This document shows positions 5,741 through 20,000 of a DNA stretch of 20,000 bases, piece by piece. The notes beneath the pieces were generated by a model that saw nothing but the letters and a program-made list of their open reading frames with translations, had not been told where the DNA came from and searched no databases. The position numbers and the translations under genes are program-made. Origin of the DNA: an uncultured virus (IMG/VR IMGVR_UViG_3300005782_000717) (taxonomy: Duplodnaviria > Heunggongvirae > Uroviricota > Caudoviricetes); IMG/VR virus record IMGVR_UViG_3300005782_000717. The stretch is one strand, 5' to 3'. How positions within the stretch are numbered: the stretch's first letter is position 1; each line of letters opens with the position of its first letter.

Positions 5741-5773
5741 ACCGCCTTCCTTTTTCACAGTCTCTGCTGTGAC

Positions 5774-5874
5774 CTATCGTTCCCCTGGCGGGGCCAGCTT
5801 TGGCACCTTCAAGAAAGACTCAAAGGTTGCCGTGCGGATCATCGGGCTGGTTCCCTAACCGCAACTCTCAATAG
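5774..5874 (-). promoter_or_regulatory. SAM-I (S-box) riboswitch aptamer
   Basis: CUAUU-GAGAG...GGG-AACCAG-CCC-GAUGA...CGGCAACC...GGUGCCAA-AG-CUGG-CCCC-GCCA-GGGG-AAC-GAUAG. P1-P4, the L2-J3/4 pseudoknot (CCAG/CUGG) and the SAM-contacting core can all be mapped. Confidence 0.88.
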
Positions 5875-5982
5875 CTCCAGGACTTATTCAATTGTTAATG
5901 TGCAATTTATATTTGGTTCCACATTTATATTACCGCTAGTAATATACTAGGAGGGATACAACACTCGGCTATAACGCATAAA

Positions 5983-6641: not shown

Positions 6642-7613
6642 CTAATGGTGGCTATGGCACATCGGGCAGTAGGTGTGGTGGGTTTCCTCGCTGGCGAAGG
6701 TGGCGGCGACTTCCCTCACCCGCCCGATCTGTGCCGGCTCGGTGATCAGGTGGCTCGACGCCCAGGTGAGCAAATTCATCATCTCGTAGCTGTTGCGGGG
6801 TGGTTCCTGGATAGCCCGGGACCTGATGACGTCAGCAATCTCGCCGCCGATCTTGGCCCTTTTGAGCATTTCCTCGAGTATGAGGGCCCGCTGCTCCGCG
6901 GGTATGCGGTCCTGCATCATCTCCCGGTAGCGGTTGACTATTCCCCCAAGGGAGCCGTAGGCATCATGCAGGGACTTGCGGAACCACTGCCAGATATCGT
7001 CGCCCTCTCCGCCGCTTCCGCTGTACTCCTGCAAAATATCGTTATGCGTCATACCATTGGTGCAGGCCAGGCGCAGGACGAAGCTCTGGACCGAGGGCAT
7101 GATGCTGCCGATGGGCGAGAAGTTGATCAGGGCGCCGGCTCTTATGAGGTCACCCTTCCGGACCGGCTCACGCTTTTCGCCAACAATCTCAATAGTGGCG
7201 GCGTAGTCATGTGTGGTGACCTTGTGGTAATCGGCGCCGGGGATAACCTTCTCGATGGTGCTTACCAGGCGCTCGGGGGAGAGGTTGTGGGCCGACGAAG
7301 GCTTGGTGAAGTCTATGATGGCGCCCTTGTCCATCAGAACGGAGTAGCGCTCTCTCCTAGAGAGTATTTGCGTGGCCACTTCCCCGAATAGTCCGGGGGA
7401 TATTTCCTTCCCCATAGACTGGGGCATGCCGATGAAGCCGGCCAGGGACTTAACCCCCGTTTTCCCAATGGTCATCGAGTGGCTGCCGGAGCCAGGGCGT
7501 AATATGACCTGGTCAGGCTGGACCACTATCTTGGTTTTGGGCTGGTGGTCTATCGTCCTCACGGTGATATCCGCGAGGGGCTGTAGCTGTTTGATGACAT
7601 CGTCTTTCTTCAA
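6642..7613 (-). CDS. DUF932/DUF945-like protein
   Basis: 323 aa with the RLACTNGM motif and a C-terminal Y...NLLTWASSH helix; extra terminal CPMC. Confidence 0.65.
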   Translation of the reverse strand: MKKDDVIKQLQPLADITVRTIDHQPKTKIVVQPDQVILRPGSGSHSMTIGKTGVKSLAGFIGMPQSMGKEISPGLFGEVATQILSRRERYSVLMDKGAIIDFTKPSSAHNLSPERLVSTIEKVIPGADYHKVTTHDYAATIEIVGEKREPVRKGDLIRAGALINFSPIGSIMPSVQSFVLRLACTNGMTHNDILQEYSGSGGEGDDIWQWFRKSLHDAYGSLGGIVNRYREMMQDRIPAEQRALILEEMLKRAKIGGEIADVIRSRAIQEPPRNSYEMMNLLTWASSHLITEPAQIGRVREVAATFASEETHHTYCPMCHSHH

Positions 7614-13177: not shown

Positions 13178-13369
13178 CTAGCTGCCGATTGCGACGGCGC
13201 CGATGACTTGGTACTTCTGGCCGGTGCTGGCGTCCATCACCTGCCCGAAGAACCCCTGCTTCCCAGTGCTGAAGGTCTTGGCATAGGCGGATAAGACGAC
13301 GAGCTGGGCGATGGCCAGCCTCTCAGCCTTGGGCTTCTTGACCTCAGGTGCCCCGTTATTCTTTTTCAC
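13178..13369 (-). CDS. Hypothetical protein
   Basis: 63 aa, KTFSTGKQGFFGQ motif. Confidence 0.7.
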   Translation of the reverse strand: MKKNNGAPEVKKPKAERLAIAQLVVLSAYAKTFSTGKQGFFGQVMDASTGQKYQVIGAVAIGS

Positions 13370-13397: not shown

Positions 13398-13712
13398 TCA
13401 AGCGTGTGCCAGCTGTAGCACTGTCGCCTTGAGTCGTTTTATAGTGTCCCTGTTAAACCCGTCGAGGTAGGTATTCAAGTCGAGGGTTCGAGACTTGGGC
13501 AATCCGTTTGGAGTACGTGAAAGCAGTCGAGGTCTTAGCGTCCCCTTCCCAGCCGGATACATCCCGACGACATGGCCACGGTAGGTTACAAACTTGGATG
13601 GCTTGACGGTCTGGCTGGCTTTGCTTAGCTTGTCAACTCTCTGTTGACATTGAGTGCAAAACCCAGTCCCCTTCCGGCTGGGACGCTCTTCGCATATGAT
13701 GCACTTAGTCAT
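13398..13712 (-). CDS. Zn-finger hypothetical protein, first gene of the small-gene array
   Basis: CIIC...CTQC; GGGGG RBS. Confidence 0.75.
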   Translation of the reverse strand: MTKCIICEERPSRKGTGFCTQCQQRVDKLSKASQTVKPSKFVTYRGHVVGMYPAGKGTLRPRLLSRTPNGLPKSRTLDLNTYLDGFNRDTIKRLKATVLQLAHA

Positions 13713-13794
13713 GGCGTCCCCCTTCGTGATGGCTTATGCCACCAGCCCCACCCACTAGCCGGAGCTAGTGGGCAGAGTGGTAGTATAAACAAGT

Positions 13795-14517
13795 TTCCCC
13801 CTGCCAGAAGCAGAGGGTCTGTGCTCTAGCCTTACTCAACTCACGTTGACAGTCACGCTGGACGTACGACAAACCCACTCTTGACATTTGAGAGCGGACT
13901 TCTCCCGTGCTCGGTTACAGCCTAAGGGTCTTGCTACCGCCCCTGCCAGTCGTTTTGAGCCTCGCCCCGCTTATCCCACGTAGCCTCTACATAAGGGCGT
14001 AGGGAGAGCATAGGCCCACCGGTGCCGGCCGCGCTGCGTTCTCTTGGGGGTGGGGGTTGCCCACCACAGCCGTTGCACGAGCTGCGCTTGTCGTGCCAGT
14101 GCTCCCAGTTACGGAGGGAACGTGGCAATTACCCGCCGACCCCTTTAACGTCTGGGTATGACGGACATATAGCCAGCGTATGTCAGGCCGTGCTGATTTA
14201 GGCCAGCAAGTCCCCCTATATTACCTTCAATAGGGTTAGGGCTGGGACTGCCGCCTTATCCCGTGGGGTCTGTGTTTCCTTTACCTTAAGCCCAGCTTCC
14301 GGCCACAGTTCCCTCGGTGTCCCCTGGTCCGGATGAGTTGGTTAGCATGACACCCTACGACCCCCGCAAGGTAAACCTCACCAGCCCCGAATAAACGGAG
14401 TGCGGGCGTAGGGTCGTTTTCCCTTCTCACCTTATCTCAAGGGATGAGCGACATTGTAGGGGGGGAATAGCAGAAGCGGCCGAACTAACGCCCAGCCGCC
14501 TCTAAAATCCCCCTACA
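13795..14517 (-). ncRNA. Candidate large structured non-coding RNA or leader, family unrecognised
   Basis: About 720 nt without a credible ORF in otherwise gene-dense DNA; many nested helices containing G-U pairs on the - strand; begins at the bipartite motif. Boundaries are approximate. Confidence 0.6.
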
Positions 14518-14551
14518 CTATAGCTAATCCGTTAACCTTTAATTGACATAA
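14515..14551 (-). promoter_or_regulatory. Bipartite motif copy 2: TTATGTCAA-N11-CGGATTAGCTATAGTGT
   Basis: Near-identical to 8681..8717; overlaps the stop codon of the sigma-like gene. Confidence 0.65.
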
Positions 14552-15117
14552 CTTGCTAAAACTGTTGGCCTGCTGCCAACCCACTTATTGAGCATTATGC
14601 GCTCACCACCTGTTATTGACTTCCCTATCAATCGCTTGTCTACAATGCTTTTTATCCAATAAGGCAATTGGTCATATAAAGCTTTACCATCCAACTCTCC
14701 ATTGAGCTTTCGCTCAAACTCTACCTCACCGACTATCAACTCACCATAAGGCACTTGATTACCCTCACCGTCCTCGACTACACTATCGAGGCTATAATGC
14801 TGCCTTATTTTGTATTTACTCCACCAATTCTGCCAATCGCATCTAGCCACTGCATAGGCTAAACGCTCATCTGTGGCTTTAGTTTTGAGCACTGCCAGTG
14901 CCAGTTCTTGGAATAAGTCTTCACGCTCTGGCTTTGGCACTTTACGACTGAAGACAAAAGCGGACTTTAGCGCCAGTTTAGCGCTAGTTGGCATGGCTTT
15001 AATTGCCTCGATATAACTCTCTACCCTCTCTCTAAACTCTTCCCCTTCAACTGGGAGGGCACTGCAAAGCATTTTAGCTATATCCCTATAAGTAACCTTT
15101 AAGAATGATTTACTCAT
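14539..15117 (-). CDS. Sigma70-family-like RNA polymerase sigma factor with a divergent or short region 4
   Basis: EREDLFQELALAVL (region 2-like), LAYAVAR, YSLDSVVEDGEG (region 3.2-like), LYDQLP...IV..R..G (start of region 4). ATG 15117 follows a GGGGG RBS. Confidence 0.65.
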   Translation of the reverse strand: MSKSFLKVTYRDIAKMLCSALPVEGEEFRERVESYIEAIKAMPTSAKLALKSAFVFSRKVPKPEREDLFQELALAVLKTKATDERLAYAVARCDWQNWWSKYKIRQHYSLDSVVEDGEGNQVPYGELIVGEVEFERKLNGELDGKALYDQLPYWIKSIVDKRLIGKSITGGERIMLNKWVGSRPTVLASYVN

Positions 15118-15269
15118 GATAAAACCCCCTTTGTTTTTTTGATAGGGATTAGCTATAGTTCGAGGTCTCAATATTAAATTTTTAACGTGCTCCGGCTGGC
15201 TAGGCCGACAATCTCATTTGAGATTGATACTTTTTAGCTTTAACCTCCAATTTTTGAAGCTATATCTAT

Positions 15270-15299
15270 ATTATAAGCATATTTTATTCTATTTGTCAA
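15270..15299 (-). promoter_or_regulatory. Consensus sigma70 promoter upstream of the sigma-like gene
   Basis: TTGACA (15299-15294), 18-nt spacer, TATAAT (15275-15270) in a very AT-rich intergenic region. Confidence 0.75.
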
Positions 15300-16140: not shown

Positions 16141-16362
16141 TTATTTCTCCACCAATTTTTGAAGGTCTTCTTTACTGAGACCACATTGTTTCAAGATGCC
16201 TAGGAGTGTTCCCGTGGCAAGTTCGTCATGGAGCGGTACCACCGTTTTATGATTTGCCTTCTGCAGGCTAACATGACTTCCTTTCTGTCGTACAACCTGA
16301 AACCCTGCCATTTGGAGCAGTTTGATAAGTCCATCCCCGGATAAGACTGGAAGTTTAACCAC
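16141..16362 (-). CDS. hicA: HicA family toxin (type II TA)
   Basis: LP.LSG..LIK.L...GF...RQKGSH.......VVP.H.EL..GTL..ILKQ. Confidence 0.9.
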   Translation of the reverse strand: MVKLPVLSGDGLIKLLQMAGFQVVRQKGSHVSLQKANHKTVVPLHDELATGTLLGILKQCGLSKEDLQKLVEK

Positions 16363-16576
16363 TAACGGTTACCTCAAGCGGATACAGGACTATCTCACCT
16401 GTATTCTTAGGAATATCCTCAGTCCCAAAACTTTCCAGGTAAAGCTCTACCGCTTCCTTAAGGTTTCCCTGTGCATCTTCAATTGTTTTACCCTGACTCA
16501 CCACTCCCAATTCCATACAATGGGCAACATACCATTTTTCTTCCTTGGTGATTATTGCTGTAAGCTTGCTAACCAT
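16355..16576 (-). CDS. hicB: HicB family antitoxin, short form
   Basis: YVA.C.ELGV.SQGKTIE.A..NLKEAVELYLE. Confidence 0.88.
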   Translation of the reverse strand: MVSKLTAIITKEEKWYVAHCMELGVVSQGKTIEDAQGNLKEAVELYLESFGTEDIPKNTGEIVLYPLEVTVSG

Positions 16577-16646
16577 ACTTTCCTTCCTATCCATCTCCCC
16601 GGTTTTACCCTGGGAAATTTACTTTCTTGCGGTCCGCATAGGCTGT

Positions 16647-16901
16647 TTAGGCTCGATAAACATCCCCTCTCGACATCACCCGATAAATGATGACCACCTT
16701 TGCGCCATCATCGACCTGGTAAAGGATTCGATAGTCCCCCACGCGAACCCTGTAGCCGCCTCTGGCGGTTAGCTTTTTGGCACTGGGCGGAAGGAAATTC
16801 TCAGCTAGACGAGCAATTGCCCTGTTAACCCTCTCCTGAGTTTGCGCTGGGAGCCTGCGAATCTGCCGATGAGCAGTGTGGCTAACTTCCAGTCGATACA
16901 C
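16647..16901 (-). CDS. relE: RelE/ParE family toxin
   Basis: Y.L......A.RQ...L.....R...I..L..N..P...KKL.....YRVRVGDYRILY.V.D.....I..V..R..VY. Confidence 0.9.
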   Translation of the reverse strand: MYRLEVSHTAHRQIRRLPAQTQERVNRAIARLAENFLPPSAKKLTARGGYRVRVGDYRILYQVDDGAKVVIIYRVMSRGDVYRA

Positions 16902-17169
16902 CGCTCTTCAGCTCTTTCGACTTCGTCAGGTGCTCCTCAAAGGGAATTGTTGCCTCCTGATCCAGCTCGGCCTGGAGCAAACCGGCAGCATCAGAAAGGT
17001 CTTCCATGCGCTCTATCATGTCGTTATACTGGTTAATCCCGACGATAACCGCTTTCACCTTACTCCCGGAAACTATAAGGTATGGCTCCCCGCCACCGGA
17101 GACTTCATCCACCAGCTGGGTGAGTTTCGGCCTAGCCTCGGCCATTCCGATTGATTTTATCCTGGCCAT
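16882..17169 (-). CDS. Phd/YefM family antitoxin
   Basis: I.M.EAR.KL..LVDEV....EP..I.......AVIV....Y..M.E..E.L; AGGAGG RBS; overlaps relE. Confidence 0.85.
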   Translation of the reverse strand: MARIKSIGMAEARPKLTQLVDEVSGGGEPYLIVSGSKVKAVIVGINQYNDMIERMEDLSDAAGLLQAELDQEATIPFEEHLTKSKELKSGVSTGS

Positions 17170-17244
17170 GCTGCCCTCCTTAATGCCTATCTTAATACAG
17201 GTATTAATCATTGTCAAGGACAGTCTTTTTCCTCCTTCAAGATT

Positions 17245-18627
17245 TCACCTCGACTTTGCCTTGGAGATGAGGCGCTCTTCTTCTTTCACCCTATCCCGGG
17301 TCATGGCGCAGTATTCCTCAACACAGTCAATAACAATAGCCTTGCGACCTAAGAAATTGGCAGCTAAAGCAAGTGTACCACTCCCCACAAATGGGTCAAG
17401 CACCACATCTCCTTCCCTACTGCCCAGGGTTATCAAGTAGGACATCAGCTTGAGCGGCTTGACTGTTGGATGCCAGTTGATTCTCGGAGTTGTTCCTGCT
17501 TTTTGGGGCACATTTCTAATATCCTGTCCTTCATCTCTACCTACTATCGGCTGAGGCACATAATCCAGTCCCCTATTCTTCTCACTCTTACTAGCCTTTG
17601 GGACTATCAGGAATGGGAAGGTCTTTTGTACTGACGCCGGCAGCTCTTTTATTTTCTCTTCCCACCACCTGTCTAAATCAAAGTAGCGCGAGAATGAGCC
17701 GGAGTCGCCTAACCCTGGTTTTGCACCTTGGTAGTATTCTTCCTTAAAGCCTCCCGAATATGCTCCTGTATGGCCAGATTTTCCCCCACTTGATTTTGTT
17801 ACCCTCCCATCATTCAGCACATCATCAGAAACTAATAGATTGGCTGGGAAACGGCCAGATTTATGCGGTGTCGACCTGAAGTCATGTTGTCCAAGACTAG
17901 CATTGAAGGTTGGTGTGCAAGTAGCATTGCTAGTCCCATAAACATCTGTTGGCCCGCCTTCCTCATACGGTATCCGTCCATCATCCAGCCAACTAATCCC
18001 CTTCTTATTTTTTAACGCTTGGTCAACAAAGGTCTTTTCACTTAACGGCTTCATTGCCACCAGGATTACCTCTACCGCAGGTTTCGGTTGCTATCCACCA
18101 TAACTGCCGTCCAGGGCTTTGGCTTGGGGAGATGTAGCTATCGTTTTATCTACCTCGATTACATTGACAGAGCGGCCAGAGTGCATCGAGCCCGATTGTA
18201 TTCCAATATCTACCTTTTCCCTGCCAATAACTTCCCTCTCAGCCCCCAGCCTCTTATCCACGGCCTTGCCAATGTTCTGCGCCTTTGGAAAGCCAGTGGC
18301 GTAGGTCCAGAAGATAGGCGTAAAATTTACCCTGAACCCCGCATCCTCAAGAGCTATAATCATCCTGCTGAGGCAATCAGCCCTGGGTATACACATCACA
18401 AAGGCAAAGGCACCGGGCTTTAATATTCTGAGACACTCAGCCCATATTCGCCTATCGGGTAATGCATTATCCCAGTCCTTGCCCATAAATCCAATACCAT
18501 AGGGCGGATCAGTTACCAATAAATCCACACTACTATCAGGCAACTGGGGTAATATCGCTCGGCAATCCCCATGATGAATTGTTACATAACTATGTTGATG
18601 ATAAGGCTGAAGTCCTTCAATTTCCAT
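17245..18627 (-). pseudogene. Beta-class N4/N6 DNA methyltransferase interrupted by a single in-frame TAG at 18093-18091
   Basis: N-half has GDC...VTDPPY; C-half has HPTVKP...VLDPFVGSGT. Both halves are in one frame, joined by GSYGG*QPKPAVEVILVAMKP. Confidence 0.85.
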
Positions 18628-18650: not shown

Positions 18651-18746
18651 TGGTAGGGACGGCAGGGCTCGAACCTGCAACCTCGGGGGAATCAGCCCCT
18701 AATACCGGTTATAAGCCGGCTGCTCTACCGATTGAGCTACGTCCCC
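18651..18746 (-). tRNA. tRNA-Ile(UAU) with a 25-nt variable region and encoded CCA
   Basis: GGGGACG/CGTCCCT acceptor, GCTC/GAGC D-stem, GCCGG-CT-TAT-AA-CCGGT anticodon arm, GCAGG-TTCGAGC-CCTGC T-arm, ACCA end. Confidence 0.9.
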
Positions 18747-18822
18747 TGGTAGCGGGGGAGGGATTCGAACCCTCGACCTCCGGCTTATGGGGCCGGTGAG
18801 CTGACCACTGCTCCACCCCGCG
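18747..18822 (-). tRNA. tRNA-Met(CAU), initiator-like
   Basis: CGCGGGG/CCCCGCT with C1:U72 mismatch, A11-U24, CCGGC-CC-CAT-AA-GCCGG, GAGGG-TTCGAAT-CCCTC, ACCA end. Confidence 0.92.
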
Positions 18823-19181: not shown

Positions 19182-20000
19182 CTATCCTCTCCAGAATGGC
19201 AGGAAGGGATGGTTTTCGTAGACCTTCTCGTCGATCTTCAGTGGATCCAGAGTCACGTAAGCCAGAGCCATGTCCCCGGTGAGCTTCCATCTTAAAAAAA
19301 TCTTGCAGTAGATGTAGTTCCACTGGACGAGGACGGTATCCAGCGCCCTTCTGAAGGAGTGCCAGCCTGCACTATCCTGATGCTCAATACCTGCCTTTAT
19401 CTCAATGGACCGGTAGAGGTTGGACATGGTGGCGAGGGAATATGGCTTGGTAAAGTCATGCCCCTTGAGGTACGGAATAATCTCTGGCGCCAGGAGCTGG
19501 TGGCGCTCGATGCCCCCCTTACATGTCAGGACGTAAAGCCGTCCCGTCTCGTAGTCGATATGCTCCTCCCCAATCCTCACCAGCTCCTCCCGGCGGAGCC
19601 CCAGGGTTGTGGAGAGGGCAAGGAAGGCGGTCTCATCCGAGGCAAGTTTGCCCTCCTTGGCCGCGTCGACCATTATGCTCACCTGCTCAAGCTCCAGTGT
19701 GGGTTTTACGACATCCGAGGGCTGGACCTTCGGCGCTCCCCTCTTTCCCATCAACCAGTGCACGCCGGCGGCGTCAAACACACGCTTCGTGATGGTATAA
19801 ATCAGCCTTTGTGTTCCCTTGGAGTACCCCTCCTTGTCCAGCTTCTTCATGAAGCGGATGACCAGAGACCTGTCCCACTCCTCCGACCGGCCAGCGAAAT
19901 CGAGGAACTTTTTGGCGTAGGCAAGGCGGCTGGCCCGGGTATGCTCGCTGCTCTGCCACAGATCCTCATCGAACCTTTTTAGAATCTCATCTCTATTCAC
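19182..20000 (-). CDS. Tyrosine recombinase/integrase (start at the window edge)
   Basis: GLRREEL (R), TCKGG (K), WHSFRR (HxxR), LRW (W in place of the second His), ALAYV (catalytic Y). Confidence 0.9.
   Translation of the reverse strand: MNRDEILKRFDEDLWQSSEHTRASRLAYAKKFLDFAGRSEEWDRSLVIRFMKKLDKEGYSKGTQRLIYTITKRVFDAAGVHWLMGKRGAPKVQPSDVVKPTLELEQVSIMVDAAKEGKLASDETAFLALSTTLGLRREELVRIGEEHIDYETGRLYVLTCKGGIERHQLLAPEIIPYLKGHDFTKPYSLATMSNLYRSIEIKAGIEHQDSAGWHSFRRALDTVLVQWNYIYCKIFLRWKLTGDMALAYVTLDPLKIDEKVYENHPFLPFWRG

Follow-up and report, generated by a model that had tools for sequence, protein, structure and literature searches.

The minus strand of the window (the whole stretch of 20,000 nucleotides analysed here) encodes, between about 14531 and 13789, a new family of large structured RNA with some 35 helices; to its identity as a conserved structured RNA we give a probability of roughly 0.97. 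The conserved unit measures ~740-750 nt, with a further conserved hairpin extending to 13734. Its 5' domain is followed by a 3' domain that is closed by a helix of its own, and a pseudoknot of 7 bp links the 5' domain to the 3'-terminal hairpin, T1 (Table 1). A preliminary description, made by eye from the sequence, had proposed a new large structured non-coding RNA directly 3' of a gene for a sigma-like protein, at 13795..14517. That core claim passed checks of covariation, folding energy, coding content and Rfam membership; the interval was drawn slightly too narrow.

Table 1. Features of the RNA and its genetic neighbourhood, in window coordinates.
Feature	Position	Strand	Details
Sigma-70-type promoter	15270..15299	-	TTGACA, 18 nt, TATAAT; agrees with the consensus at 12 of 12 positions; precedes the sigma-like gene
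Bracketing helix, 5' arm	15145..15166	-	core ACUAUAGCUAAUC at 15159-15147; ends 27 nt before the ATG
Sigma-like protein gene	14539..15117	-	192 aa; possibly a divergent ECF-type sigma factor
Bracketing helix, 3' arm	14517..14531	-	core GAUUAGCUAUAGU; begins 7 nt past the stop codon
First hairpin	14455..14517	-	outer helix UGUAGGGGG/CCCCCUACA; inner helix H1 (14501-14491 with 14484-14474)
5' domain	14094..14444	-	helices H2-H19, with covariation in A2
H4	14415-14407 with 14359-14349	-	98% paired; double changes at 5 pairs
Pseudoknot, 5' strand	14359..14365	-	GGGGGUC; pairs with 13819-13813
GCTGGG/CCCAGC helix	14296-14290 with 14248-14241	-	93.5% paired; 4 of 7 pairs double-changed
H14	14235-14230 with 14219-14214	-	6 of 6 pairs changed on both sides
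H16	14208-14191	-	invariant CCUAAA loop; within the 5' domain
3' domain	13867..14093	-	closed by H20; most conserved part of the RNA
H20	14093-14086 with 13874-13867	-	6 of 8 pairs double-changed
Pseudoknot, 3' strand	13813..13819	-	GACCCUC; overlaps the T1 5' strand
T1	13789..13824	-	G+C-rich two-part hairpin, then U-rich stretch; from a terminator scan; inner stem 13817-13810 with 13804-13797
T2	13734..13788	-	long hairpin with 20-25 bp, almost perfectly paired, separating T1 from the following gene; its base pairs the U-rich stretch with an A-run
Zinc-finger protein gene	13398..13712	-	104 aa, CxxC..CxxC; always the next gene after the RNA
63-aa protein gene	13178..13369	-	frequent fourth member of the module

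The ORF-free gap noticed at the outset is real: a six-frame count over 13713-14538 found TAA, TAG and TGA stops in every frame (10-14 per frame), so that no change of genetic code opens it. The minus-strand fold and the strand preference of its G-U pairs, both also proposed at the outset, were borne out. Folding of the minus strand gave -307 kcal/mol against a shuffled mean of -281.1 (sd 6.75; z -3.83), a value equalled by none of 20 shuffles, whereas the plus strand gave z -1.37 and was equalled by two of 20. Among the 4379 cells of predicted pairs in our principal alignment, A2, comprising 33 full-length sequences, 518 are G-U and 46 are A-C, an excess that fixes the RNA strand as minus.

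Covariation, which the preliminary description had named among the tests to apply, is strong. Within A2 the 134 predicted pairs are 95.6% paired, compared with 36-50% when partners were slid, and 98 of them show double (compensatory) changes, compared with 41-49 when slid; these values were reached by none of 500 shuffles, a control that overstates significance because the aligned sequences share kinship, so that the slid-partner figures are the fairer comparison. A wider model of 203 pairs is 91.6% paired, with double changes at 142 pairs. Realignment of five poorly aligned segments yielded no additional well-supported helices, and pairings offered by RNAalifold between the ribosome-binding site of the next gene and C-rich parts of the RNA were rejected, being without covariation.

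Most of the helices originally drawn by eye could be placed in this model. The pairing AGAGGCGGCTG/CGGCCGCTTCT is H1 (14501-14474), in which 9-10 pairs show double changes (10 of 11 in the wider model), and TGTAGGGGG/CCCCCTACA is the outer helix around it; the equivalent segments are complementary in most of 25 loci, and in 16 of the 25 the 5' strand of this outer helix is able to pair instead with the 5' UTR. The hairpin formed by these two helices differs in length among homologues. The pairing ACCCTACG/CGTAGGGT corresponds to H4 and CCCTCTGC/GCAGGGGG to the 3' hairpin T1, while H4 and the GCTGGG/CCCAGC helix each carry compensatory changes (Table 1). Other details fared less well. GACATA/TATGTC falls in a poorly aligned, variable hairpin where other sequences appear to use other complementary letters; the TCAAC-GTGA-GTTGA helix lacks conservation, since all 32 remaining rows of A2 are gapped at that place; and the repeat GGGCGTAGGG, present in the window as described, occupies two places that differ from each other in most homologues. 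Within the covarying scaffold, many nucleotides that stay unpaired at junctions and in loops do not vary. The sequence of several loops is the same throughout (CCUAAA, GUAGCAAG, CAAAAGUCC), and the conserved blocks within the 3' domain comprise ACGGCUGUGGUG, CCAAGAG, GUAGCAAG and CAAAAGUCC.

The pseudoknot joins strands ~545 nt apart. It is paired in 99.1% of 231 cells, against 32-71% when slid, and has 15 double-change cells against 1-2 when slid; its covariation score and its paired share were each reached by none of 500 shuffles. All seven pairs form in 24 of the 27 distinct arm combinations found among 74 nhmmer matches. A scan for further long-range covarying stacks returned this pseudoknot only, other candidates consisting of invariant or G-U-tolerant columns. 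Its 3' strand runs into T1, which looks like an intrinsic terminator that at the same time belongs to the RNA fold: the hairpin is conserved across A2, both in the alignment and in folds of single sequences, and a run of at least four U lies within 30 nt of it in 25 of 33 sequences, the window's own tract being only UUUAU. Pseudoknot and T1 have four C residues in common (A2 columns 908-911), and both stay paired in every variant of these columns. Column 908 is U in four sequences, all with A at column 278; at column 926 one of the four also carries A, while a G-U pair is formed in the remaining three. Mutually exclusive pairings exist around the 5' strand of T1, but shortened forms can coexist. 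The G-run of the pseudoknot (14365-14361) also has covarying local partners, at A2 columns 213-217 or 244-249. Beyond T1, hairpin T2 has changed on both sides at 22 of 24 pairs, with 89.8% of cells paired.

A second long-range helix, 20-30 bp in length, encloses the entire sigma-like ORF, its 5' and 3' arms holding exact 13-nt inverted copies (14529-14517 versus 15159-15147). In the 34 distinct loci where both arms are present, 76-100% pairing is seen at the core positions; the pairs covary, and mixed types occur (A-U 12, G-C 11 and G-U 4 at one position; A-U 23 and G-U 11 at another). The median duplex energy is -29 kcal/mol, versus -17 for shuffled or reversed partners, and 60 of 72 loci reach -20 or better, compared with 100 of 360 shuffled and 27 of 72 reversed controls, whose values overlap the real ones. 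The 13-mer GATTAGCTATAGT is kept in sequence as well as in pairing and contains a -10-like TATAGT. In nearly all of 76 loci the 5' arm lies 0-27 nt from the start codon, and no more than 22 nt separate the 3' arm from the stop codon; given this closeness, the helix may control translation instead of, or besides, processing. Upstream of the gene, the sigma-70-type promoter is presumed to be the start of the transcript that carries the RNA; of 61 distinct related loci, 32 (a raw, uncontrolled count) have a match of at least 10 of 12 positions in the 260 nt that precede the sigma-like gene.

The RNA forms part of a four-part module comprising the sigma-like gene, the RNA, the CxxC zinc-finger gene and the 63-aa gene. 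The designation of the upstream product as a sigma factor, taken over from the preliminary description, is weakly supported. The protein has 348 homologues at E<=0.001 and no Pfam or PHROG match; 9 of 29 family members match the NCBIfam ECF sigma model TIGR02937 weakly (best E 0.0038, below any curated cut-off), while no Pfam sigma family matched any of the 29. A profile search against the PDB gave no matches, and the AF2 model (pLDDT 74.6) found its best Foldseek match, to sigma-E region 2, at E 0.45. VIA-align rows for sigma domains 2 and 4 reached Z 4-5.5, within the range of unrelated helical proteins, and fold matches overall reached at most Z 6. The downstream 104-aa gene, preceded by an AGGGGG ribosome-binding site at ~13723-13718, was found in 40 loci, ~10 to 50 nt past the RNA match in nearly all and farther away in three where the match ends early. 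Its product has an invariant N-terminal C4, C7, C19 and C22 (29 sequences), no Pfam or PHROG match and an AF2 model (pLDDT 80.2) with no Foldseek match at E<=0.001; all rows from a protein atlas fell below the level where chance matches are common. Weak Foldseek rows for this protein include small beta-barrel DNA-binding and ribosomal proteins. Neither flanking protein has an RNA-binding domain recognised by Pfam, PHROG or Foldseek. The 63-aa gene lies 3' of the zinc-finger gene in 13 loci (tblastn) and in both module copies of genome G003.

Interrogation of related loci revealed a tight linkage. Of the 59 loci in which 450 nt or more of sequence follow the sigma-like gene, 58 have the RNA, its strand being the same in every case; nhmmer located it in 74 of 85 loci. 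A covariance model of positions 14081-13904, R1, matched 54 places in 87 sources, one per source and on the strand of the gene every time; genome G003 has two copies of the RNA, with the same module at both. Among 151 genomes sampled from the class of genome G001, R1 matched G001 alone. The sources are metagenomes from sediment, soil and groundwater, together with a small number of genome bins assigned to Dehalococcoidia. An integrase lies within ~5 kb of the module at the three places with enough sequence, and the element carries two tRNA genes. The module is thus carried, a few kilobases from an integrase, by mobile elements whose hosts are uncultivated bacteria of these three environments. 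Comparison of the RNA core with the window gave 89-90% identity for the four closest relatives scored, against 80-81% DNA identity for the flanking genes; among distant relatives the core median is 58% against 66-68% for the flanking genes, figures measured in different ways, so that at this distance the core sequence is no better conserved than its neighbours.

In phage and plasmid collections we found no match to the gap (blastn) or to the sigma-like protein (tblastn), and protein scans of viral contigs returned no relative of the sigma-like protein and one weak relative of the zinc-finger protein (L001). Another viral contig (L086) that matched a DNA pattern of three invariant blocks proved to be a chance match and not the RNA. 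Among the public sequencing runs searched, no RNA run matched the window sequence; the four runs with a full match contain DNA from marine sediment, possibly from the source sample itself, and four DNA runs matching over a small share (soil, sediment, groundwater and one unlabelled) carry diverged relatives that cover mainly the 3' domain of the RNA and part of the sigma-like gene.

Comparison with Rfam 15, which includes GOLLD, ROOL, OLE, HEARO, raiA, RNase P, group I and II introns, tmRNA and 6S, identified at gathering score only two tRNAs and a SAM riboswitch elsewhere in the window, and one tRNA in 16 related loci. This agrees with the initial impression of no likeness to RNase P, tmRNA, introns or small ribozymes. 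At E up to 10 the RNA region gave four chance-level matches far below cut-offs (D12-methyl, mir-4928, mir-885 and JPX_2). One conserved loop bears some likeness to a conserved region of RNase P; this identity was rejected, there being no RNase P model match even at E up to 10. Full-text searches of the literature found no description of such an RNA, and term look-ups in PMC11109978, 10.64898/2026.10.21.760802 and 10.64898/2026.09.15.751765 returned none, although the supplements to these sources could list an unnamed candidate.

The RNA can be compared with several known systems. As in the expression platforms of riboswitches and T-box leaders, a terminator-like hairpin has a strand that can pair instead with a conserved segment further upstream; here that segment lies ~545 nt upstream, inside a ~740-nt fold, and no known aptamer class is present. 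Long-range helices flank 16S and 23S rRNA and are cut by RNase III. The present system likewise has a long-range helix of 20-30 bp around a long insert, and a second long duplex, T2, beyond the RNA, but the helix encloses a protein-coding ORF and not a structured RNA. OLE with the Oap proteins and HEARO (omega RNA) with IscB are large RNAs encoded beside the genes of their partner proteins, and this type of adjacency is the main reason to suspect a ribonucleoprotein (RNP) here; the models of neither match our RNA, and its neighbours are a sigma-like helical protein and a small zinc-finger protein, in contrast to membrane proteins or a nuclease. Protein partners of OLE are mentioned in PMC12286853 and PMC3413148. 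GOLLD and ROOL, as reported in PMC12286853, measure 659 to over 800 nt, are encoded by prophages or phages, often near tRNA islands, have no known function and form RNA-only nanocages. Our RNA resembles them in its several hundred nucleotides, many helices, pseudoknot and encoding by a mobile element. It differs in matching neither Rfam model, in being tied to the sigma-like and zinc-finger gene pair, with which it is apparently co-transcribed, and in its absence from the phage, plasmid and viral-contig collections searched.

These features lead us to favour, tentatively and at a little under even odds when taken as a whole, a mechanism of RNase III-type processing followed by assembly of an RNP, proposed from sequence and predicted structure. 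The RNA would lack a promoter of its own; a strong promoter of the housekeeping type would drive the transcript of the sigma-like gene, and the RNA would form the 3' portion of that transcript. The conserved helix between the 5' UTR and the bases just past the stop codon would loop out the whole ORF. This helix and T2 both reach ~20 bp or more of near-continuous duplex, the length criterion for an RNase III site, and from that length we guess that they may be duplexes of the type cut by RNase III. The presence of such long duplexes to either side is compatible with excision of an independent RNA, which would then be released as a stable molecule ending at or near T1; the four C residues that pseudoknot and T1 share suggest that folding may be coupled to termination there. 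The released RNA might act in trans, as a scaffold or RNP partner of one or both flanking gene products, within the regulatory module of the element. Counting against this mechanism are the weak U-tract of T1 in the window, the eight of 33 sequences in which four consecutive U do not occur, the overlap between real and control duplex energies for the bracketing helix, the lack of a recognised RNA-binding domain in either flanking protein, and a core that in distant relatives is no better conserved than the flanking genes.

The preliminary description had offered three functions, namely an independent RNA, a partner of the sigma-like protein and an antitermination leader. Because the RNA always occupies one place between the same two conserved genes, and its pseudoknot shares bases with T1, the protein-partner reading stays in play, as does one in which the RNA stays in the operon transcript as a giant cis-acting leader or read-through switch. 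Pairing of the G-run at 14365-14361 with the C-run of T1 would block the terminator, local pairing in the 5' domain would leave T1 free to terminate, and the state of that domain, perhaps set by a protein or ligand, would decide the level of the zinc-finger gene and small-gene array relative to the sigma-like gene. Constancy of orientation as well as place agrees with such a switch, as do the columns shared by two pairings that every variant preserves, the covarying local partners of the G-run, the U-run that follows T1 in most sequences, and an interval from T1 to the next gene so filled by covarying T2 that little room is left for a separate promoter. We nevertheless consider it unlikely. 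Its ~740 nt, some 35 helices and many invariant unpaired blocks exceed known attenuator or riboswitch needs, and we know of no attenuator or riboswitch requiring that length and that number of helices. A pseudoknot of 3-4 bp (columns 278-281 with 905-908) can coexist with a nearly complete T1, so that a switch is not required; covariation in the lower stem of T1 comes from a single sequence, L070; there is no known ligand or effector; and the helix bracketing the ORF is left unexplained.

The remaining readings appear less probable still. Protein-free self-assembly of the GOLLD and ROOL kind, giving a symmetric homo-oligomer, cage or ring during the active phase of the element, would accord with invariant loops such as CCUAAA, GUAGCAAG and CAAAAGUCC, as loop-loop contacts would require, and the size, ornate fold, pseudoknot and mobile-element context resemble those reported for GOLLD and ROOL in PMC12286853. 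We regard it as quite improbable, since neither sequence nor model similarity to those RNAs was detected and ours is locked between two specific genes, where GOLLD and ROOL, according to PMC12286853, often lie near tRNA islands; the covariation scan gave no intermolecular contact, being in any case unable to tell one from an intramolecular contact. A ribozyme that excises itself from the transcript, or has as its target a different RNA, for instance a tRNA or a transcript of the element, would suit the invariant unpaired nucleotides at junctions and loops, a fold locked by a long-range pseudoknot and the two tRNA genes on the element. Its prospects are poorer again: no Rfam ribozyme, RNase P or intron model matched even at E up to 10, no interrupted host gene marks an intron, and there is no other pointer to catalysis. 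Close to refuted is the view that no functional RNA exists and that the region is a decayed or recoded gene, a possibility the preliminary description had itself named, or works at the level of DNA, for example as an origin of replication or a cluster of sites for protein binding. Some homologues do have stretches, chiefly antisense, in which as many as 188 codons pass without a stop, and the TATAGT-containing 13-mer is conserved in sequence; but the region is not coding, with all three kinds of stop in six frames of the window and open stretches that vary in frame, strand and place between loci. Compensatory changes in 98 to 142 pairs, and a 518:46 ratio of G-U to A-C, are what a single-stranded RNA with one polarity leaves behind.

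Bacterial RNAs of very large size and intricate fold are uncommon, and we know of only a handful of classes (OLE, GOLLD, ROOL, HEARO and raiA), each of which opened new biology or a new RNA architecture. With more than 50 natural representatives in hand, a well-supported secondary structure and a strict link to two uncharacterised genes, the present RNA is directly testable. It marks a conserved regulatory module of a family of integrative elements, themselves almost entirely unannotated, in Dehalococcoidia-like bacteria of sediment and subsurface. In a more far-reaching and doubtful scenario, in which the zinc-finger protein might be a partner or an antagonist of a mobile-element sigma factor, the RNA would be a decision device whose 5' domain senses a signal or binds a flanking protein, whose choice between pseudoknot and terminator sets the level of the downstream array, and whose bracketing helix allows translation of the sigma-like protein only until transcription reaches the 3' arm. 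If that scenario is true, the RNA would be by far the largest cis-regulatory RNA known, or else a new class of RNP or ribozyme, and in either case would add a further level of control, new in kind, to how integrative elements live and spread.

In the intergenic stretch between the sigma-like gene and the gene that follows it, every one of the six frames contains 10 to 14 stop codons, with TAA, TAG and TGA all represented, so that recoding a single stop cannot open it. In some homologues stop-free stretches extend up to 188 codons; their strand, frame and place vary between loci, and they are interrupted in the window itself, as they are at several further loci. The preliminary description had proposed a structured non-coding RNA and allowed for a decayed coding sequence, which these inconsistent open stretches and the stops in all frames argue against. 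It had also assigned the RNA to the minus strand, which over the interval 13795-14517 folds at -307 kcal/mol versus -281.1 +/- 6.75 for 20 dinucleotide shuffles (z -3.83; 0/20 as good); the plus strand under the same control gave z -1.37. No Rfam family accounts for the region: interrogation of the whole window with Rfam 15 at gathering scores returned two tRNAs and a SAM riboswitch elsewhere and no match in the gap, and a search of the gap region at E-values up to 10 retrieved four matches, all at chance level.

A search of a large protein collection with the sigma-like protein (192 aa, ATG at 15117) retrieved 348 homologues at E<=0.001, nearly all of them unnamed metagenome proteins. A profile of 29 homologues was used to gather 80 metagenome loci and four from Dehalococcoidia/Dehalococcoidales genome bins; protein scans of viral contigs found no locus with a relative. 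In most loci blastn shows DNA-level conservation of the gap immediately 3' of the sigma-like gene, and two rounds of nhmmer located the RNA element in 74/85. It occurs in 58 of the 59 loci having at least 450 nt downstream of that gene, the sole exception (L085) carrying just a gene fragment (residues 7-94), and its start is visible in 16/25 loci with shorter downstream sequence. In the closest four relatives scored, the RNA core is 89-90% identical versus 80-81% for the flanking genes; in distant relatives the figures, measured differently, are 58% versus 66-68%, the core there being not better conserved.

To evaluate structure we aligned the window with 32 distinct sequences among 34 full-length matches (33 rows, 1054 columns; the 5' domain and linker are partly poorly aligned). 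A narrow model comprises 134 pairs and a wider, ribosum-based model 203 pairs in 37 helices; of these, 98 and 142, respectively, changed on both sides, as against 41-49 and 70-81 when partners were slid. Paired cells amounted to 95.6% of 4379 in the narrow model (36-50% when slid by 1-3 columns) and 91.6% in the wider (39-49%), and double-change cells to 657 (96-127) and 855 (168-219). The observed values were attained by 0/500 shuffles for either model; because the sequences share kinship, the slid-partner controls are the fairer ones, and they settle decisively that this is a structured RNA. Among paired cells G-U outnumbers A-C by 518 to 46, a ratio that the opposite strand would invert, so that the polarity of the RNA is that of the flanking genes. 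Both the covariation expected among homologues and the strand originally named are thereby borne out, and the element is a conserved, multi-domain RNA of single polarity fixed between two conserved genes.

Past the sigma-like stop codon, the RNA comprises a variable first hairpin, a 5' domain in which all six pairs of helix H14 covary and the loop of H16 (CCUAAA) is invariant, and a 3' domain in which the most extensive invariant blocks lie (ACGGCUGUGGUG, CCAAGAG, GUAGCAAG and CAAAAGUCC). The linker beyond this domain is less conserved. It hosts the TCAAC-GTGA-GTTGA hairpin of the preliminary description, which is indeed present in the window and is not conserved: it is a window-only insertion (13835-13848), gapped in 32/32 aligned homologues. 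A covariance model of the 3'-domain core (177 positions, 48 pairs), trained on 46 of 47 listed segments (L004 was omitted as a near-duplicate of L002), matched once in each of 54 of 87 sources, always on the strand of the sigma-like gene. At one locus (L021:946-1308) the 3' arm and first ~73 RNA positions are followed by ~300 nt off-profile, possibly because of a sizeable insertion or because the 5' domain has diverged.

Features of the RNA and its surroundings (window coordinates)
Feature	Coordinates	Strand	Remarks
Sigma-70-type promoter	15299-15270	-	perfect; upstream of sigma-like gene
Intergenic stretch	13713-14538		between minus-strand genes 15117-14539 and 13712-13398; from ORF/stop survey
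3' arm of long-range helix	14531-14517	-	first feature past sigma-like stop codon
First hairpin	14517-14455	-	variable; inner helix H1
5' domain	about 14444-14094	-	at least a dozen helices
Helix H4	14415-14407/14359-14349	-	within 5' domain
Pseudoknot, 7 bp	14365-14359 with 13819-13813	-	GGGGGUC with GACCCUC
3' domain, closing helix H20	14093-14086/13874-13867	-	
T1 hairpin	13824-13789	-	last element of RNA
T2 hairpin	13788-13734	-	near-perfect, 20-25 bp; covariation at 22/24 pairs

When the alignment was scanned for covarying stacks beyond the nested pairs, a pseudoknot emerged that joins a bulged part of the 5' domain to a segment lying just before and within the 5' strand of the terminator-like hairpin T1. 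Its cells are paired in 229/231 instances (99.1%; 32-71% when slid), with 15 double changes versus 1-2 when slid, and neither its covariation score nor its paired share was attained in 500 shuffles. Pair variants include UC/GA, CU/AG, CC/GG, UU/AA, CAC/GUG and A/U; across the 74 nhmmer matches, 24 of 27 distinct arm combinations form all seven pairs and the remaining three form six. As the pseudoknot joins both ends of the RNA over about 545 nt, 14444-13797 constitutes a single folding unit. T1 itself is a G+C-rich, two-part hairpin, followed within 30 nt by a run of at least four U in 25/33 sequences, the window having UUUAU only. Its lower stem shares four C residues with the pseudoknot, limiting coexistence to shortened forms. 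Where one shared position is changed from C to U, in four sequences, the pseudoknot side has a compensating A in 4/4; on the T1 side the partner is A in one and G, a wobble pair, in three. The long hairpin T2 comes next, and beyond it the following gene is preceded by an AGGGGG ribosome-binding site.

A further helix is predicted to bracket the sigma-like ORF. The window contains exactly two copies of the 13-mer GATTAGCTATAGT, one at 14529-14517 (minus, just past the stop) and the other inverted, in the 5' UTR (15147-15159, plus). Across related loci, the 90 nt that precede the start codon pair with the 48 nt that follow the stop, typically as a 20-30 bp duplex, with a median of -29 kcal/mol (72 distinct loci) versus -17 for shuffled or reversed partners; -20 or better was reached in 60/72 loci versus 100/360 shuffled and 27/72 reversed. 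Since the controls overlap real values, duplex energy by itself is no more than suggestive. Stronger evidence is the mixed pairing of the core arms, recognisable in 34 distinct loci, at positions 76-100% paired (for example, A-U 12, G-C 11, G-U 4; A-U 23, G-U 11; C-G 11, G-C 10). Non-conserved flanks of the arms are also complementary locus by locus (L054, L008, L079 and L015, for example), and together with the core they imply that the entire ORF is looped out by the predicted helix. In nearly all of 76 loci the end of the 5' arm is separated from the start codon by 0-27 nt, and the 3' arm begins no more than 22 nt past the stop. The bases that immediately follow the 3' arm have two mutually exclusive potential partners, the 5' UTR or the far side of the first hairpin, in 16/25 loci.

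The gene following the RNA encodes a 104-aa protein with invariant CxxC..CxxC; tblastn placed it 3' of the RNA in 40/40 loci where it was found, starting ~10 to 50 nt past the RNA match in nearly all and farther in three with a short match, and a 63-aa gene comes next in 13 of the 40. Pfam and PHROG contain no family for these two proteins or the sigma-like protein. Weak signals suggest the sigma assignment: NCBIfam's model for ECF sigma factors matches 9/29 homologues (best E 0.0038), 5/29 match a CRISPR-associated RpoE-like model, and in one source a homologue is annotated as a sigma-24 protein. With an AF2 model (pLDDT 74.6) as query, Foldseek and VIA-align returned numerous entries for sigma domains 2 and 4, none of them significant (E 0.45 at best; Z no higher than 5.5), and a PDB profile search yielded no matches. 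Promoters scoring at least 10/12 precede the sigma-like gene in 32/61 distinct loci (raw count).

An integrase fragment lies at the right edge of the window (19185-20000), which also carries HicAB and ParE/Phd pairs, DNA methyltransferases, DUF2958 and DUF4314. A Dehalococcoidia genome bin, G003, has two module copies on two contigs. Both have an integrase 3-5 kb away, and downstream of one come genes for a beta-clamp-like protein, a protease and a ParB-like protein. This proximity of integrases and element-type genes indicates that the carriers are integrative mobile elements, prophage-like or otherwise. The G003 copies (C10:29009-29186 and C66:3345-3523; L091, L092) are diverged versions of the whole module, their sigma-like proteins 42-47% identical to the window's, and represent either two related elements in one host or a mixed bin. 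The core model was absent from the other 150 genomes sampled from the class of carrier genome G001, many of them incomplete, which fits a sporadic, mobile distribution. Relatives occur in contigs of four more DNA runs, three of them labelled as soil, sediment and groundwater and the fourth without a label; among public sequencing runs, none labelled RNA contains the sequence.

Other features were observed. Between the integrase fragment and the methylase genes lie two adjacent tRNA genes at 18651-18822 (-), an unusually long tRNA-Ile (96 nt; anticodon TAT) and a tRNA-Met (CAT), which are either element-borne or the integration site. An N6/N4 DNA methylase (17245-18627, -) is divided between two ORFs matching the Pfam N-terminal part (18627-18091) and C-terminal part (18060-17245), being either frameshifted or truly split; a short Dam-like fragment lies at 16090-15827. 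Just upstream of the module, the toxin-antitoxin pairs (HicA/HicB-like, ParE with Phd/YefM) stand back to back at 16141-17217 (-). The SAM riboswitch (S-box; 5771-5877, -) scores 53.5 bits, the gathering score being 44.4; it lies on the same element and precedes a small ORF and the DUF2958 gene (5607-5302), an unusual cargo for this riboswitch class. A protein of ~320-350 aa matching phrog_1362 (function unknown), encoded downstream of the module (window 6642-7613, -; L091:9542-10585), may be a further conserved gene of the element family.

A non-RNA explanation is nearly excluded. GOLLD and ROOL share the size, ornateness and mobile-element origin of the RNA (PMC12286853), but the present RNA differs from them in sequence, fold and its fixed tie to a gene pair. 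We consider an RNA-only assembly of their kind improbable; a ribozyme seems less probable still. No Rfam family matched the RNA, whether in the window or in any of 16 related loci, and full-text literature searches, extending to the main texts of recent discovery papers, yielded no description of such an RNA; we therefore rate it a new RNA class, with a modest but real chance that it is already catalogued somewhere as an unnamed candidate.

Judging from sequence, the promoter that precedes the sigma-like gene would initiate transcription. As soon as the 3' arm is made, the bracketing helix could close, curbing further translation initiation and offering a putative RNase III-type site. The RNA would then fold, the pseudoknot docking T1 onto the 5' domain, and transcripts would either stop at T1 or continue into T2, a second putative processing site, and the downstream genes. 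Competition between pseudoknot and T1 for their shared C residues could act in cis as a read-through switch; this main rival is rather unlikely, the size of the RNA and its many invariant unpaired blocks surpassing the needs of a leader. Those same properties lead us to favour, with a probability of about 0.45-0.5, a released, stable RNA working with the product of a neighbouring gene. Other large RNAs that work with proteins lie strictly adjacent to the genes of those partners, and the likeness of the module to such RNA-protein pairs favours a ribonucleoprotein. Release of a stable RNA and a read-through switch are not mutually exclusive.
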